A stretch of DNA of 19,728 bases from Escherichia coli. GTDB taxonomy: Bacteria; Pseudomonadota; Gammaproteobacteria; Enterobacterales; Enterobacteriaceae. Under the pieces are notes generated by a model that was not told the origin of the DNA, ran no database searches, and saw nothing but the letters and a program-made list of their open reading frames with translations. Shown in pieces: positions 545 to 16,130 of the stretch; position 1 is the first letter of the stretch; every line of letters starts with the position of its first letter. A program made the translations under genes and the position numbers. Location of the stretch: NCBI RefSeq assembly GCF_003334255.1, contig NZ_QOWU01000070.1; one strand, 5' to 3'.

Positions 545-3256
545 CTACATTCCAGGTGATGGTGGCGTCCACTCATTATCCTGAACTGGAGTATAAGATG
601 TGTCATTCCCCCCGGATATGCTTTTCTGTTGCCTGATATATTCGTGGTAGTACTGTTCACTACGCTGACGATGTAAATCCACATCCGGGCGGCTGATTAC
701 AAAGTGTCCATTTCCGGTTATTCCAGCTGCATTATGCCAGGCCACCATTTCCGCAAATACATCATTAAACTGTTGATATGAGCCTTCCGGTTCAAAACCC
801 ATTCCAGGCTCACGATCAAACAATACAGGAGCAATCAGATTCAGCTTATCCACCAGTTCATTTCTGTCCTGATGATGGTAGAACACCACACGGTCCCCAT
901 AATCCACACAGACTAACTCGCCATTCCTCCGATCACGAAAACGCACACTGCCATCTTTCTGCAGACGGGCTTCGAGAACGCCAGTGTCTTCATAAAGTGG
1001 AGTTCCTCCCGGTTCACAGATAATCACGCAGCGGTCGGCATTCGTTGTTCGTCGCTTGTCTTTGCGACGATCACGATAATCCCAGCCACGTAACTGTGAT
1101 ACTGCAGCTCTGTCTCCCTGTACCGCCTGTTGCTCCACCCACTGCCGGTAGGACAAAGGATACCACTTACCCTCCGCAATCAGTGACAACCGCTCTTCCT
1201 TCACACTCTCCTTCAGCCTGATCAGCGCCTGCATACGCTGCACTTCCGCAATATGGTAATGCAGCTTACGCAATTGTGGATCCCGGAACTGCACGCGGAT
1301 ATACGCCTTGCGCCGACGGCAGGCAGCATGAATTTCCCGTAACCGTTCTCCGTAACGTAAGTCGGGTTTACGCCAGTGCTCCTTCCATGCAAGATAACGC
1401 GCGCGCAAATCTTCCCGCGCAGCTGCACGGGCTTCACGGCGTTCACGACGCAGTACAGGATCGCGCCGGAAGCCGGGCTCCACTTCATCGCTGGCAGCAA
1501 GTTCCGGATTGTAGCGACATTCAGGCTTCACCCGTTCAAATATATCTGCACCTGCGATCTCAAATGGCCCTGCCTGCGGCTCAGCCCTGGATAATGTCAA
1601 ATCCGGGTGGATACTGCTGGCCTTCACTGGTGTCAGCTCATGATTAAACGCATCCACAATCACAAGACCATGATGCTGTTTCTGCAACATAAGCCCTTTA
1701 CGCGCAAACATCTCATGGCACGCCTGCCAGCTGAAATTCCCGCCCGCGATCATATCTTCAATCAACGACTCACACTGAACAGTCGTGTACCCCCACAGAC
1801 TTTCCTTATCAGAAAACAGTTCGCGCTTTATTGCTCCCTGTGGACCTGTCCCCATCCGCATACGATACCATTCGTAATCACTGACAGCCCGGGTACCGGT
1901 ACTGTGCCCCCGGAATCGTTCTCCGGGGACGACCTGGGTAAAAATATCCTTCGGTACAGGCTGCCATCCGCCTTCCTGATCCTGCATGTAATCCAGCGTC
2001 ATTAACGGCCACACACTGTCTGCACGTACTGGTGTCTGTTGTTTATCAAATCCATCATGCAGTACCAGATGCCCGTGCTGGATCCCCATCCATAATCCAG
2101 CCTTTGCCAGAGTTCTGTGCACATCCAGGCAACTTTCCAGCTCACCATTTCTCGCCATTTCCGGTAAGCGTTCGGCAAAATGACGGCAGGCGTACTGTTT
2201 CAGACTCTCCGTTTCTGCCACTTTTTCCGGCCGGATATCAACGTTTATCGCTTCCGGATCATAACGACCGGGTGTCCCCACCTGACTGAAAATATCTGTC
2301 GGTACAGGCTGATATTCTCCCAGTTTCCGCCCCAGTCTTTCAGCCGTCCATGACGGGCCGAACGAACTGAGCACAACACCTTCCCGCGATCTGTCCCAGC
2401 CATCCTTCACCACCAGTTCTCCCTCCTGCATCGTGATATACAGACCATCACGGGCCAGCCGTTTATGCAAAGACAACCAGTCCTGGGCGGGTTCTTCACG
2501 CAGCCCGGCAATCGACATCTGCGCAATATATTCCCTGAAGGTCTGCTTTTTCCCGCGTCGCCAGGCATTACGGCGCTCACGTACCAGCGCTGTTTTACGC
2601 ACAATACGGTTGCCCGGTGCATGCACAAAACACCCGTTATCCGGTGCAAATCCGTGCTTAAGTTCAAGTTCACGGCATGCACGACTGAGTTTTTCCTTGC
2701 TCCACGGAAGGCAATTGATATAGCCGGTTTCAGGATGAACACGATTCACTGCAACATGTACATGCAGGTTATCGGTGTCTGTATGAACGGCAGCTACATA
2801 CTGATGTTTTGAAAGTTCAAGGGATTTCAGTGTGTGACGTACGCAGTCAAAAAGCTGCTCAGGACGCGGGCTTTCATGCGCAGGCCAGGAAAGAATGTAG
2901 TGAAAAACAGGGTCTGTATCATCTTTGGAAAAATGAGCAAGGTCTGCTGCTTTCTGCATTTCTTCAGCCGCAGATTCAAGAGACAAACAGTTATGAAAGC
3001 AGGTCACACCATAGAAATTCACCCACTGACTGCCGTCTTCCATTACATCAATCAGGGATACAAATTTTTCGTTACGCAGGCGTGTGGCATAGTCAACAAG
3101 CCGTCTGAAGCGGTTACGGTGCGGGACCTCACCTTTCATTTCCGGGTCTGGTTTGAGTTCATCATCCTGCACATCATCCCGCACAGACGTGTACGCAATC
3201 AGGTCTTCAAAGGAAGACCTTCCGTCACGTCTTTTGGGCGGAATGATAGCATTCAT
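545..3256 (-). CDS. nikB: MOBP-family conjugative relaxase (NikB-like), 903 aa
   Basis: Relaxase histidine motif HTDTDNLHVHVAVNRVHPETG (HxDxxxxHxH type). Size and N-terminus (MNAIIPPKRRDGRSSFEDL) fit my memory of IncI1 R64 NikB (~900 aa). Lies directly downstream of a nikA-like gene and oriT. Confidence 0.88.
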   Translation of the reverse strand: MNAIIPPKRRDGRSSFEDLIAYTSVRDDVQDDELKPDPEMKGEVPHRNRFRRLVDYATRLRNEKFVSLIDVMEDGSQWVNFYGVTCFHNCLSLESAAEEMQKAADLAHFSKDDTDPVFHYILSWPAHESPRPEQLFDCVRHTLKSLELSKHQYVAAVHTDTDNLHVHVAVNRVHPETGYINCLPWSKEKLSRACRELELKHGFAPDNGCFVHAPGNRIVRKTALVRERRNAWRRGKKQTFREYIAQMSIAGLREEPAQDWLSLHKRLARDGLYITMQEGELVVKDGWDRSREGVVLSSFGPSWTAERLGRKLGEYQPVPTDIFSQVGTPGRYDPEAINVDIRPEKVAETESLKQYACRHFAERLPEMARNGELESCLDVHRTLAKAGLWMGIQHGHLVLHDGFDKQQTPVRADSVWPLMTLDYMQDQEGGWQPVPKDIFTQVVPGERFRGHSTGTRAVSDYEWYRMRMGTGPQGAIKRELFSDKESLWGYTTVQCESLIEDMIAGGNFSWQACHEMFARKGLMLQKQHHGLVIVDAFNHELTPVKASSIHPDLTLSRAEPQAGPFEIAGADIFERVKPECRYNPELAASDEVEPGFRRDPVLRRERREARAAAREDLRARYLAWKEHWRKPDLRYGERLREIHAACRRRKAYIRVQFRDPQLRKLHYHIAEVQRMQALIRLKESVKEERLSLIAEGKWYPLSYRQWVEQQAVQGDRAAVSQLRGWDYRDRRKDKRRTTNADRCVIICEPGGTPLYEDTGVLEARLQKDGSVRFRDRRNGELVCVDYGDRVVFYHHQDRNELVDKLNLIAPVLFDREPGMGFEPEGSYQQFNDVFAEMVAWHNAAGITGNGHFVISRPDVDLHRQRSEQYYHEYIRQQKSISGGNDTSYTPVQDNEWTPPSPGM

Positions 3257-3267
3257 CAGCGACTGTC

Positions 3268-3600
3268 TCAGCGTCCCATTAAGTCTCTTCGCAGAGTGTT
3301 TGCAAGTTCTGTAATGGCAACGAGGACCTCTGCATACTCTTTATCTCCCGTGCGTTTTCCTTCCACAAACAGATGCTTCTGCAGGTGACCAAGACGCATC
3401 AACTCTTTCAAAAAATCTTCATCAATGCGGGCATTTATCTGTTTTCCCAGCACAGTTTTTCTTATCAGAGTTGAAACTGTCAGTCCGTTTTTTTCTGCCT
3501 TTTCTTTAACAATCTCAGCCTCTTCTGGTGAAAAACGAACAGCAATGAGGACATTCTTTTGCCGTTTCTCACTGCCATTTCGGTTTTTCTTCTCACTCAT
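3268..3600 (-). CDS. nikA: Relaxosome accessory protein NikA (ribbon-helix-helix oriT-binding), 110 aa
   Basis: 110-aa product starting MSEKKNRNGSEKRQ with SD AAGGAG 6 nt upstream of the ATG at 3598-3600; the longer 139-aa ORF in the track would overlap the oriT repeat. Small basic protein immediately upstream of the relaxase, the R64 nikA-nikB arrangement. Confidence 0.85.
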   Translation of the reverse strand: MSEKKNRNGSEKRQKNVLIAVRFSPEEAEIVKEKAEKNGLTVSTLIRKTVLGKQINARIDEDFLKELMRLGHLQKHLFVEGKRTGDKEYAEVLVAITELANTLRRDLMGR

Positions 3601-3641
3601 GGTCTGCTCCTTACCAGGGTGTCGGGGCAAAGCCCTGACCA

Positions 3642-3700
3642 GGTGGTAATCGTATAGCCGTGCGTGCGCGGTTATACGATTACACATCCTGTCCCGTTTT
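3642..3700 (+). other. oriT: oriT: inverted repeat (arms 3646-3656 / 3673-3683) followed by nick-core-like ACATCCTG TCCCG
   Basis: 11-bp inverted repeat GTAATCGTATA / TATACGATTAC, then 8 bp later ATCCTG (3686-3691) resembling the MOBP nic core (RP4 ATCCTG|C); sits between nikA and the leading region. Nick position 3691|3692 is inferred by analogy only. Confidence 0.6.
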
Positions 3701-3832
3701 TCAGGCCATTATAGCCTGTTATTTTTGTGCATCATAGTCTTATGCAGACGGCAGAGGCAGGGCGCAGCCCTGCCAGGAGGCAGTTTTTGGTGATAAAATC
3801 AGGCTTCAACATGAAACGGAGAGAAAGTGCCA

Positions 3833-4168
3833 ATGGCTTCTAAAAAATTTTACTCAGATGATGACATCCAGCTGGCAAAAGCTGCTTTATCGGAATTGCC
3901 GGACCTCACCGCTCAACGGAAAACATTGCGTGATTTTCTTGATGCCATTCGTGATGACATCATTGTCCTGGTAAGGACAAAGGGTTATACACTGACAGAT
4001 GTTCGTGACACGCTCAAAAATGCAGGGTATGAAGTAGGAGAGAAAGCACTTCGTGACATTATTCGGGAAGCAGAATCGAAAAAACCATCCCGCCGTTCTT
4101 CCTCTAAAACAGCACCTAAAAAGACAGATTCAGGCAGGAAAGATGGCATCGATATGAACAACAATTGA
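3833..4168 (+). CDS. Hypothetical small basic protein (possible DNA-binding), 111 aa
   Basis: ORF with ATG at 3833 preceded by GGAGAGAAA; C-terminal lysine/arginine/serine-rich tail; stop directly followed by the perfect palindrome GATGTGAC ga GTCACATC (4167-4185). Function not recognised. Confidence 0.6.
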   Translation: MASKKFYSDDDIQLAKAALSELPDLTAQRKTLRDFLDAIRDDIIVLVRTKGYTLTDVRDTLKNAGYEVGEKALRDIIREAESKKPSRRSSSKTAPKKTDSGRKDGIDMNNN

Positions 4169-4212
4169 TGTGACGATGTCACATCGTGTTCTGAGATTAT
4201 GATGATTACAGA

Positions 4213-4249
4213 AAAAAAAGCCCCGGCATAAATACCAGGGCTTTTCTGT
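4213..4249 (-). terminator. Rho-independent terminator for the minus-strand leading-region transcript
   Basis: On the minus strand: stem AAAGCCCTGG / CCGGGGCTTT with one mismatch, followed by a run of 8 T; located just after the stop of the 4254-5102 gene. Confidence 0.7.
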
Positions 4250-4253
4250 TTGA

Positions 4254-5102
4254 TCAGACTCGTGGCGGCAATGCACCAGGATAATGACGTGCAATAATAT
4301 CATTCAGTTTTTCAACAAGGTCAGGACACTTAAAGACAATATGTACGGTCCCTTTCTGGTAGCCACGCACCGTAAAATATTCCCCTTCAAACAACTCACC
4401 GATATTGTCGCCGTTCCCGAGATATTCACCATACTGCGCCCCGATGCTGTTCCTGAAGTCAGGAACGTTGCGTCCCTCCAGCAGATAAAACGGACGTACC
4501 AGGTCATCCAGTGCCTCCCGTCCGCTGCAGTCCAGCGTCACACGCCCGTTACTCCAGCGGTACAGCAGGTTTTCAATAATGATTTTCTTGCCCAGACGGC
4601 AGGGATTATTGGTTCTGTAATCCCATGACAATTTCCGGTAGACATCAATCAGTCCCTGTTCAAATGTCTGCATCTTGCTGGCATTCAGATGGCGAAAAGT
4701 TGCCAGTACATTGTCCAGGGTGATTTCAGGACAGGTGTCGCTCATCAGCTGGCTGTTCCACTCATCACGCTGGCATGAACTCATGAAGGTGTACATCCCC
4801 GTATCCGCCATCAGGCGGTCCCAGATTTTACGGTCGGCAAGACGGGTGATATTCTTTTTTGCTTCTTCCGGTTTATCCATGCATCGAACGGAGTCAGTCA
4901 CGCAGTCTTCAAACCCGTAGAGAAAAATGTCACCAGAAGCATCGAGCAGAATCCTGCGTGCTGTCGCCAGGCATTCCATCGCCTGCATGAACAGTGCAAT
5001 ACCTTCGTTACGCTGCGCGATAATGCGGTCGATGGCCACAGACGGAATAATATCTGTCGTGCCGGCAGTATTCAGGTCAGCAGTGGGTAAAGTCTGATTC
5101 AT
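4254..5102 (-). CDS. Hypothetical protein, first gene of the leading region (possibly DUF4942-like), 282 aa
   Basis: Long ORF; ATG at 5100-5102 with SD GAGGAG 8 nt upstream (the track start is a GTG one codon earlier). No methyltransferase, HExxH or nuclease motif seen by eye. The family assignment is from memory and weak. Confidence 0.75.
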   Translation of the reverse strand: MNQTLPTADLNTAGTTDIIPSVAIDRIIAQRNEGIALFMQAMECLATARRILLDASGDIFLYGFEDCVTDSVRCMDKPEEAKKNITRLADRKIWDRLMADTGMYTFMSSCQRDEWNSQLMSDTCPEITLDNVLATFRHLNASKMQTFEQGLIDVYRKLSWDYRTNNPCRLGKKIIIENLLYRWSNGRVTLDCSGREALDDLVRPFYLLEGRNVPDFRNSIGAQYGEYLGNGDNIGELFEGEYFTVRGYQKGTVHIVFKCPDLVEKLNDIIARHYPGALPPRV

Positions 5103-5578: not shown

Positions 5579-5667
5579 AAAAGTGAAATTTCTTCACTTT
5601 TTCACACTTATTTTTCGCGCTGATTTGGTGATTATGGTGATAAAATAAAGTGAAGTTTTTTCACTTT
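5579..5667 (+). promoter_or_regulatory. Twin operator-like palindromes and promoter upstream of the HTH gene
   Basis: Two copies of AAAGTGAA-N5/6-TTCACTTT (5579-5600 and 5647-5667) flanking an AT-rich -10-like stretch, ending 15 bp before the ATG at 5682. Confidence 0.55.
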
Positions 5668-5681
5668 TTCAAAGGTGTTTT

Positions 5682-5933
5682 ATGACCGGCTGGGAACTGC
5701 GAATCTGGCGAAAAAGCATGCTCTGGTCACGCGAAAAAGCGGCCAGAGAATTTGGCGTGACGCAGAGAACATGGCACGCCTGGGAAAATGCGGAACAGGT
5801 GGATGTCACCGTCTGGAGGACCACCCAGGCACTTTCAGTCCGTGACCTGCTGCCTCACATGCAGGGGATGCGTAAGGCAGATATCATCAGGCGACTGGAA
5901 AATGAACTGGGGGAAACGGCAGAGGATGTGTGA
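5682..5933 (+). CDS. Small helix-turn-helix (XRE-like) DNA-binding protein, 83 aa
   Basis: ATG with AAAGGTG SD; N-terminal segment ELRIWRKSMLWSREKAAREFGVTQRTWHAWEN fits an XRE-type HTH; preceded by the twin palindromes. Confidence 0.65.
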   Translation: MTGWELRIWRKSMLWSREKAAREFGVTQRTWHAWENAEQVDVTVWRTTQALSVRDLLPHMQGMRKADIIRRLENELGETAEDV

Positions 5934-8626: not shown

Positions 8627-9015
8627 AGGTCACGGCGCGACAGGGGCGGCGCGACCGGAACGGTCGCTGCAAGCCGGGTTTTCACGCATCGGACCGTAGC
8701 GGCAGCCCGAAACCGCGCCAGCGGGTTCGGCGGAGACTGGCGGGTGCGCCAGCAGCTGCCCGTCGGAGTCGGGCCTGACGACCGGATGCCGCCAGGCAGC
8801 CGGGAGCCGAAGTGGGCGCAATAAAAGACAGCCAGAAACGGTGACAGTGTCACGGAATATCACTCCTGTTCCCTGCATACAGCCATACACTACCTTCTGA
8901 CCGGAAAGCCGGGCCGGCAGCGCCGCAGGCGCTGCACCCCGCGTTTCCGGCAGGCGTCAGCCTGCCTGGGGTTTTCGCGCGGGCTGACAGGCGGCCTCCA
9001 CCGCCTGCCCCTGTA

Positions 9016-16036: not shown

Positions 16037-16130
16037 AAAATCATATCAGATATGATTTTTATCATTTATGGTAAATCATATCTGATATTATAAGAATTCA
16101 ATAACCAATAAATCATATATAATATGATTT
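16037..16130. promoter_or_regulatory. Three operator-like palindromes AAATCATAT-N1-3-ATATGATTT upstream of the 16167 operon
   Basis: Perfect palindromes at 16037-16059 (11-bp arms) and 16110-16130 (9-bp arms); a degenerate copy at 16074-16090; all in an AT-rich stretch ending ~35 bp before the ATG at 16167. Confidence 0.55.

Follow-up and report, generated by a model that had tools for sequence, protein, structure and literature searches.

The oriT-adjacent yggA gene of I-complex plasmids: a predicted helix-turn-helix protein and a conserved palindrome at its stop codon

The DNA analyzed here is a 19,728-nucleotide (nt) stretch of Escherichia coli contig NZ_QOWU01000070.1 (assembly GCF_003334255.1), hereafter called the window, which comprises the origin of transfer (oriT) and leading region of an I-complex plasmid. 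Our subject is yggA, a small gene just past the nick site, together with its product YggA and the palindrome at its stop codon. A first reading of the letters (the original prediction) had described a small basic protein gene lying between oriT and the leading-region terminator and followed by a perfect palindrome. The genes and features that frame it are as follows.

545..3256, - strand: nikB, encoding a MOBP relaxase of 903 amino acids (aa); open reading frame (ORF) whose annotation is relaxase in the identical plasmid and IncI1-type NikB in relatives
3268..3600, - strand: nikA, ribbon-helix-helix (RHH) relaxosome accessory protein; NCBIfam MobA NF041264 (E 1.9e-32), weaker RP4 TraJ matches, and annotation
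3611..3692, + strand: oriT core; inverted repeats at 3611-3649 and 3646-3683, then the nick motif ACATCCTG/T
3833..4168, + strand: yggA coding sequence (CDS), 111 aa; ORF with a predicted helix-turn-helix (HTH) domain (residues ~1-82), then a basic tail (83-111) predicted to be disordered
4209..4252, both strands: bidirectional intrinsic terminator; A-run, GC-rich hairpin and T-run, RNA fold z = -4.15 (4140-4262)
4254..5102, - strand: ygfB (DUF4942), by annotation the first leading-region gene in the usual - orientation

Positions 3600-4300 match the IncK2/Z plasmid NZ_CP060058.1 at 100% identity, and window and plasmid are colinear apart from two insertion sequence elements that the window lacks. 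The oriT aligned with those of seven I-complex plasmids (R64drd and six others). A MOBP-type nick motif, ATCCTG/T, is found on the + strand 8 nt 3' of a 17-bp repeat, a placement that we take to be the arrangement of R64 and RP4; the R64 nick site was reportedly described by Furuya and Komano in 1991. From the MOBP consensus and the published R64 arrangement, we infer that nicking occurs between 3691 and 3692 on the + strand. The terminator at 4209..4252 is common to yggA (+) and the convergent DUF4942 gene (-) and is kept in R64 and in L025. The gene thus sits between oriT and the terminator, as had been claimed. An Rfam scan of the entire window returned no family.

The yggA ORF runs from an ATG at 3833 to a TGA at 4166-4168 and is preceded by a ribosome-binding site, GGAGAG, at 3818-3823. 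Its start and stop agree with the original prediction and are backed by the ORF list, the ribosome-binding site, a promoter-like site and RefSeq, which annotates the same CDS (WP_001579791.1) in a plasmid with 100% identity across 3600-4300. The gene ends singly at the bidirectional terminator, with no adjacent ATPase gene in the window. The name yggA is used in the curated records LT985289 and LC567072; R64 YggA is 97% identical to that of the window, and yggA is among the 42 core genes of IncK2 plasmids (PMC12987596). The doubt raised along with the original prediction, that the gene might not be conserved in related plasmids, is answered by 2171 PLSDB plasmid records matching the region at ≥80% DNA identity and by 3547 plasmid records matching the protein in tblastn. 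It is the first leading-region gene of I-complex (IncI1/B/O/K/Z) plasmids, an already named gene of unstudied function rather than a new system. Plasmid NZ_CP060058.1 (L013/L014) carries nikAB, oriT, excA and a NusG-like traB, has no type IV secretion system (T4SS) or pil genes and is typed as mobilizable, a transfer-defective derivative that has kept yggA and oriT.

The orientation of yggA is shared in this stretch only by a small hypothetical ORF and the XRE-family gene ygeA. Antirestriction and DUF1380 leading genes lie on the - strand, as do ardA, psiB and ssb in R64, and canonical leading genes are transcribed from the entering strand via Frpo-type promoters (PMC3817090). Since the nick motif is on the + strand and the Frpo-driven leading genes are on the - strand, the + strand is the transferred strand. 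The sense strand of yggA is therefore the transferred strand itself, so that the gene can be transcribed only after complementary-strand synthesis, in keeping with the earlier statement that it is not expressed from single-stranded DNA (ssDNA).

YggA has a mass of 12.5 kDa and a whole-protein isoelectric point (pI) of 9.36. The description of a basic protein holds overall, but not for the folded part: residues 1-82 are acidic (pI 5.1), and the positive charge is all in the 29-residue tail, residues 83-111 (pI 10.6). An exhaustive phmmer search returned only 77 clusters at 50% identity, all of them proteins of ~100 aa, with a conserved core (residues 1-95), a variable basic tail and conserved residues L19, P23, L46, K50, G51, Y52 and L61. 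The family is small and plasmid-specific. Nothing significant was found for YggA in Pfam, NCBIfam or PHROGs, or in Pfam with every member of the alignment; only weak transposase HTH matches appeared. A phmmer search of the single sequence against PDB sequences likewise found nothing. AlphaFold2, run on a 50-sequence alignment, modeled a five-helix domain with a predicted local distance difference test score of ~90 over residues 1-82 and a disordered tail at 83-111. The model is an all-helical HTH, with HTH helices at residues 54-63 and 70-82; the fold comparison listed Tn3 resolvase, DnaA domain IV, sigma factor domain 4, ArdK/KorA and KorB, and the StbA DNA-binding domain ranked second-best in the PDB. 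With the family profile, the C-terminal HTH of sigma-54 was matched at E 3.7e-4 and StbA at E 0.096. The prediction that YggA binds DNA via a C-terminal HTH, with the recognition helix at about residues 70-82, is well supported by these models.

Database names for the family point elsewhere. Most RefSeq records of the yggA family are named 'molybdopterin-guanine dinucleotide biosynthesis protein MobC', a name found on thousands of RefSeq/UniProt records, and on plasmids of Serratia, Yersinia, Erwinia and Pseudomonas the relatives go under the label 'mobilization protein MobC'. YggA had no match to Pfam MobC (PF05713) or to the molybdenum-cofactor families of Pfam and NCBIfam. Identity with MobC of the RSF1010 or ColE1 type (PF05713) was ruled out by the HTH rather than RHH model and by the lack of a profile match. 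MobC proteins share the name alone with YggA, and the RHH accessory role in this plasmid belongs to nikA. The molybdopterin label is an annotation error, seemingly a RefSeq expansion of the plasmid gene name mobC.

Gene order around oriT was compared across relatives. The same arrangement occurs in 11 loci besides the window: L006-L012 (I-complex), L002 (C. telavivensis), L003 (Salmonella IncFIB), L004 (Serratia) and L023. In each, a yggA-like gene lies just past nic and points away from oriT, divergent from the RHH and MOBP relaxase genes, and the genes beyond it run the opposite way. The order is the same in IncL (L005), where the RHH and relaxase genes are without functional annotation. At L019 and L020 the divergence from nikA is kept, and the next genes run in the same direction as the yggA-like gene. 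The order relaxase (-), RHH (-), oriT, yggA-like gene (+), leading genes (-) is found in metagenomic contigs as well. Distant family members at L019 and L022 are followed by a gene for a ParA-like ATPase, each with weak matches to RP4 TraL profiles; the ParA-like neighbor at L019 had no significant match to R388 StbB by direct BLASTP and showed only the weak TraL/ParA profile matches. Upstream of the Orf35 homologue on the IncL plasmid OW848836.1, the annotation of L005 1909-2472 gives a hypothetical protein of 187 aa whose gene spans the oriT region. Its start is probably miscalled, given the reported length of 105 aa for the NikA of pCTX-M3.

The closest relative with experimental data is Orf35 from pCTX-M3, an IncM plasmid. 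YggA is 38% identical to the IncL homologue of Orf35 over 73 aa (BLASTP, E 8e-13), and Dmowski et al. had noted 32% identity between Orf35 and R64 YggA. Orf35 (in pCTX-M3 and its IncL/pOXA-48 homologues) resembles YggA in sequence, in size and in its basic C-terminal tail, and like yggA its gene is the first of the leading region, divergent from nikA-nikB across oriT. YggA thus belongs to a YggA/Orf35 family of oriT-adjacent small proteins of MOBP/MPF_I plasmids, as judged from sequence and gene position. Deletion or replacement of orf35 raised nikA, nikB and traH transcripts 40-, 23- and 80-fold, and its replacement increased mobilization of an oriT plasmid 100- to 200-fold while self-transfer was unchanged (PMC6112013, PMC8125031, PMC7440800). 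The authors remarked that Orf35 had no known DNA-binding motif (PMC6112013, PMC8125031, PMC7440800), a gap that the HTH prediction for the YggA family fills. The two systems differ in that nikAB of pCTX-M3 heads a long tra operon, so that Orf35 controls T4SS genes too, whereas nikAB of the I-complex is a separate two-gene operon. They differ also in the palindrome, which is present in the I-complex and not in IncL/M relatives.

The region from nic to yggA was aligned across nine lineages. It contains the following elements.

3709..3714, - strand: TATAAT, candidate -10 of the nikAB (oriT operon) promoter; a perfect match with a putative promoter role
3732..3750, no strand assigned: imperfect inverted repeat CATCATA-gtct-TATGCAG, a candidate operator over the -35 of the putative nikA promoter; from the alignment
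3756..3774, no strand assigned: perfect inverted repeat GGCAGGGC-gca-GCCCTGCC, a candidate operator overlapping the -35 of the putative yggA promoter
3770..3799, + strand: putative yggA promoter; CTGCCA, 18 nt, and TAAAAT with an upstream TG (extended -10), from a consensus scan

The block CATTATAGCC around TATAAT is kept in all aligned lineages, including the 63%-identity relative L002, and the -10 block of yggA, GGTGATA(A/G)AAT, is kept in divergent lineages. In diverged lineages, each repeat is altered in both of its arms. The repeat at 3732-3750 is a perfect CATCATA/TATGATG in L006 and reads CTTCATA/TATGAAG in L007, where both arms have changed together. The repeat at 3756-3774 shows compensatory changes to GGCAGGAC/GTCCTGCC in L008 and GGCAGTGC/GCACTGCC in L002. 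From this pattern we infer that the two repeats are candidate operators for YggA and/or NikA. As a separate observation, the promoters of ygeA and yggA share the 12-mer TGGTGATAAAAT at the -10. Two copies of AAAGTGAA-N5-TTCACTTTTTCA (5580-5604 and 5647-5671) bracket the promoter of the XRE-family gene ygeA (5682-5933, +) and are probably operators of ygeA.

StbA of R388 and TraK of RP4 occupy the same slot. In R388, trwC-trwB-trwA (-), oriT and stbA (+) are followed by establishment genes on the opposite strand, a layout like that of the window, and according to Guynet et al., RP4 TraK is homologous to StbA and binds between nic and traK (PMC3098194). By hhalign, the YggA family profile matched StbA with a probability of 83% (E 9e-6), and a 30-member StbA alignment with a probability of 77% (E 2e-5) over 76 collinear columns spanning the crystallized StbA(1-75); the score of 35.4 compares with a maximum of 20.7 among 100 column-shuffled controls. 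The published StbA family covers MOBF11, MOBP11, MOBP6 and MOBP13/14 and does not include IncI1 and IncL/M (bioRxiv 10.1101/2022.04.29.490116), and no paper linking YggA or Orf35 with StbA was found in the literature. By analogy of fold, profile and position, YggA would work like StbA or TraK, to which it is possibly distantly homologous. Taken with the predicted HTH and the Orf35 homology, this resemblance favors the suggestion in the original prediction of an oriT-proximal regulator or accessory factor.

The likeness has limits. StbA (PDB 7pc1) has ~140 aa with a second, C-terminal domain, and the StbA/TraK family ranges from ~135 to 175 aa, whereas YggA has 111 aa and ends in its 29-residue disordered tail. 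In R388, stbA is followed by stbB and stbC, while yggA has no adjacent ATPase gene. StbA binds two arrays of five 9-bp direct repeats; no such array lies near yggA. A search of 3685-3835 for stbDR-like direct-repeat arrays found none: there are only two 7-nt direct copies, and the conserved elements there are inverted repeats. A single GTGCATCAT at 3727-3735 matches the R388 stbDR consensus TTGCATCAT at 8 of 9 positions. One StbA/TraK feature that the window has is a gene beside oriT that opens the leading region and diverges from the relaxase operon. Three others, the C-terminal domain, the partner ATPase and the direct-repeat arrays, are lacking, and yggA is therefore filed under the YggA/Orf35 family and not the StbA family.

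These comparisons bear on whether YggA, instead of repressing transcription, might serve the relaxosome as an accessory factor or position the plasmid, in the manner of StbA/TraK. Such a protein would coat or bend oriT-proximal DNA and balance nucleoid-associated maintenance against recruitment of oriT to the transfer apparatus, with secondary effects on transcription. The slot and orientation are those of stbA and traK (PMC3098194), the DNA-binding domain of StbA ranks second among the fold matches and aligns collinearly at profile level, and distant family members precede a ParA/TraL-like ATPase. The phenotypes are also comparable, since loss of StbA raised conjugation 50-fold (PMC3098194) and loss of Orf35 raised mobilization more than 100-fold (PMC6112013). 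On the other hand, the I-complex and IncL/M members are without partner ATPase and StbA C-terminal domain, direct-repeat arrays are missing, and these plasmids have separate ParM/ParR-type partition genes. In addition, yggA was neutral in the pESBL screen discussed below, and orf35 loss shifted transcripts 23- to 80-fold. We regard this explanation as unlikely.

The palindrome at the yggA stop codon and a second copy of its core are located as follows.

4166..4186, no strand assigned: 21-nt palindromic element, perfect over 4167-4185 (8+3+8), with core GTGAC-N3-GTCAC at 4170-4182
8841..8853, no strand assigned: second core palindrome copy, GTGACAGTGTCAC, in the leading region 4.7 kb deeper; kept in R64drd and CP056802

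The arms are GATGTGAC (4167-4174) and GTCACATC (4178-4185), as had been described. The spacer is 3 nt (gat) and not 'ga', and the left arm overlaps the TGA by 2 nt instead of following it. Perfect inverted repeats with arms ≥8 and spacers of 0-6 number 21 in the window against 2.3 expected from dinucleotide shuffles, an excess of ~9-fold, and the leading region is generally rich in potential hairpins. One such repeat fell within the 88-nt 3' region in 42 of 5000 shuffles (0.8%). Taken alone, the palindrome is not beyond chance; what makes it more than chance is that it is conserved and recurrent.

In R64 the element is a perfect 21-mer, TGATGTGACA-A-TGTCACATCA (10+1+10), from which the window differs at two positions. 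The divergent loci L006 and L007, with ~70% protein identity, another C-terminal tail and unalignable downstream DNA, carry CGTGACATTGTCACAC directly after the stop codon. Because they keep it where the flanks have diverged, the core is taken to be the 13-bp GTGACA-N-TGTCAC; the copy at the yggA stop codon of the window (site 1) is a one-base variant of it. No such motif follows the stop codon in relatives whose protein identity is ≤63%. GTGAC-N3-GTCAC occurs exactly twice in each of R64drd (121 kb), CP056802 (80 kb) and NZ_CP060058 (100 kb), against 0.07-0.1 expected. The second copy lies at record position 55721 of R64drd, ~600 bp upstream of ssb, and its 13 bp are invariant in 6 loci with variable flanks. 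An exact GTGACAATGTCAC was also found at L117 1668-1680 (and in L024), with ~2e-4 expected in that contig. It is within 560 nt of non-coding DNA, flanked by a HigBA-like toxin-antitoxin pair and DUF4942, with no detectable homology to the window or R64; the YggA of L117 is 53% identical. This recurrence in unrelated contexts argues for sequence-specific recognition.

The same observations bear on the idea that the palindrome is functionless, one of many inverted repeats kept through close plasmid kinship. In its favor are the ~9-fold excess of 8-bp-arm repeats across the window, the 95-97% identity of most I-complex sequences here and the missing motif after the stop codon in relatives at ≤63% protein identity. 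It is at odds with the core kept in L006/L007 despite an unalignable protein C-terminus and downstream DNA, with exactly two copies per 80-120-kb plasmid where 0.07-0.1 are expected, and with the third exact GTGACAATGTCAC in non-homologous DNA (~2e-4 expected). A functionless palindrome is accordingly quite improbable.

Known elements were considered for the palindrome and rejected. A CRP site has the wrong spacing (TGTGA-N5-TCACA here, against N6 in the consensus), and the palindrome fits neither FNR nor LexA boxes. As a promoter -35 (GTGACA resembling TTGACA) it lacks an acceptable -10 on either strand, except for a weak + strand match that would fire into the terminator. A - strand terminator was flagged by a scan, and the substitutions described below would yield C.A mismatches on that strand. 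The second site is not the tip of a long Frpo-type hairpin, since no extended inverted repeat is centered on 8841-8853.

Variation at site 1 was examined in 93 copies, representing nine variants, from a metagenome scan and plasmid loci. Four substitutions are recurrent or lineage-level, at element positions 21 (A/G), 20 (C>T), 10 (A>G) and 17 (C>T); all four convert a Watson-Crick pair into G.U on the + strand and would give C.A on the - strand. Pairing is broken by only two singletons, one of them in a contig of ~1x coverage. Such a pattern is expected of a + strand hairpin, the alternative to a protein site. In yggA mRNA, a 9-10-bp stem over the stop codon, 23 nt before the terminator, could be a 3' stabilizer, processing site or pause element; in the transferred strand (T-strand) it might, for instance, serve as a landmark when complementary-strand synthesis across yggA is primed. 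Folded as RNA, 4140-4262 does form the palindrome hairpin, along with an outer GAACA/UGUUC stem and the terminator (z = -4.15), and the four substitutions are G.U-compatible across all 93 loci. Yet four events are a small sample (p ~0.06 counting only transitions), and the outer stem is broken by a recurrent G>A change present in four loci. Moreover, L006/L007 retain only a 5-bp stem yet the exact 13-bp sequence, and further copies of the 13-mer stand at another conserved site and in DNA without homology, which pure structure would not need. A hairpin in place of a protein site is possible but less likely than not.

Most likely, the palindrome is a site at which a dimeric protein binds in a sequence-specific way. 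The hedged suggestion of a possible protein-binding site in the original prediction survives, given the core kept despite flank divergence, the second conserved site and the occurrence in non-homologous DNA. We rate a protein site a little higher than a hairpin; one does not preclude the other. YggA is a candidate for the binder by proximity and co-occurrence: it is the nearest HTH protein and the sole DNA-binding protein visibly common to I-complex plasmids and L117.

Drawing these lines together by analogy with Orf35, we consider it somewhat more likely than not that YggA is an oriT-proximal DNA-binding repressor of nikAB, with the palindrome as a protein site. YggA would bind the 140-bp region from nic to yggA, where the two inverted repeats lie over the -35s of the back-to-back nikA and yggA promoters, and when bound would repress the nikAB relaxosome operon and, probably, the yggA promoter too. 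Repression of nikAB is proposed because the IncM homologue Orf35 does so genetically, and there would be a parallel with R388 StbA and RP4 TraK in the same slot. YggA is not made at the incoming ssDNA stage and is available only after complementary-strand synthesis. The palindrome can fold into a hairpin as well, either in the mRNA of yggA or in the T-strand.

Several observations weigh against this proposal. The link between YggA and the palindrome is one of proximity alone, and the upstream inverted repeats have half-sites of unrelated sequence. P0048, which has a nearly identical recognition helix, is without the motif in its 2.4-kb contig, and among YggA relatives no correlation was seen between recognition helix and presence of the palindrome. 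The G.U-compatible + strand substitutions suit a hairpin as well as they suit a protein site, or better. No experiments on YggA itself were found in the literature beyond a transposon screen of the IncI1 plasmid pESBL, in which yggA insertions were neutral for transfer (PMC4288162). That neutrality fits the Orf35 phenotype and gives no positive support. Finally, the separate nikAB operon of the I-complex may mean that regulatory reach differs from that in pCTX-M3.

A bolder version of repression by YggA can be formulated, and we hold it the least probable of the readings considered here. YggA would be a switch gated by conversion to double-stranded DNA, binding both palindromes and the promoter repeats and thereby ending the zygotic burst and relaxosome expression, and the family would be the MOBP12 branch of StbA/TraK. 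On this account yggA would stay silent while Frpo-driven ssb, psiB and ardA fire from ssDNA, and YggA would be made once the complementary strand exists. The palindromes bound would be those at the end of yggA and upstream of ssb.

Two further features of the window were noted. Relative to R64, it is without the entire ssb-psiB-psiA-ardA block (window ~8780-8812; R64drd records 55674-55794 and 62107-62139). The junction in the window matches both copies of a repeated (Frpo-type) sequence in R64, and the hybrid repeat of pO111-CRL115 resembles it (PMC3817090). A AAATCATAT-type inverted-repeat cluster occurs twice, 72 bp apart, at 16038-16125, in an intergenic stretch upstream of a small ORF and a site-specific integrase gene; it may be a recombination or partition site.

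What is added here to an already named gene is the HTH prediction, the link from YggA/Orf35 to StbA/TraK, the candidate operators, the 13-bp motif with two copies per plasmid and the correction of a misannotation. The last is of practical use, as the molybdopterin name stands wrongly on thousands of RefSeq records, and the 13-bp palindrome is a concrete, testable cis element in the leading region. I-complex and IncL/M plasmids are major carriers of extended-spectrum beta-lactamase and carbapenemase genes, and the limits on their relaxosome expression are poorly understood. If YggA acts like Orf35, its removal should raise mobilization of small oriT plasmids by orders of magnitude, a point of relevance to how resistance spreads and how donor strains are designed. 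If true, the link to StbA/TraK would extend to MOBP12/MPF_I plasmids a common design in which the HTH protein encoded by the first leading gene balances maintenance against transfer.

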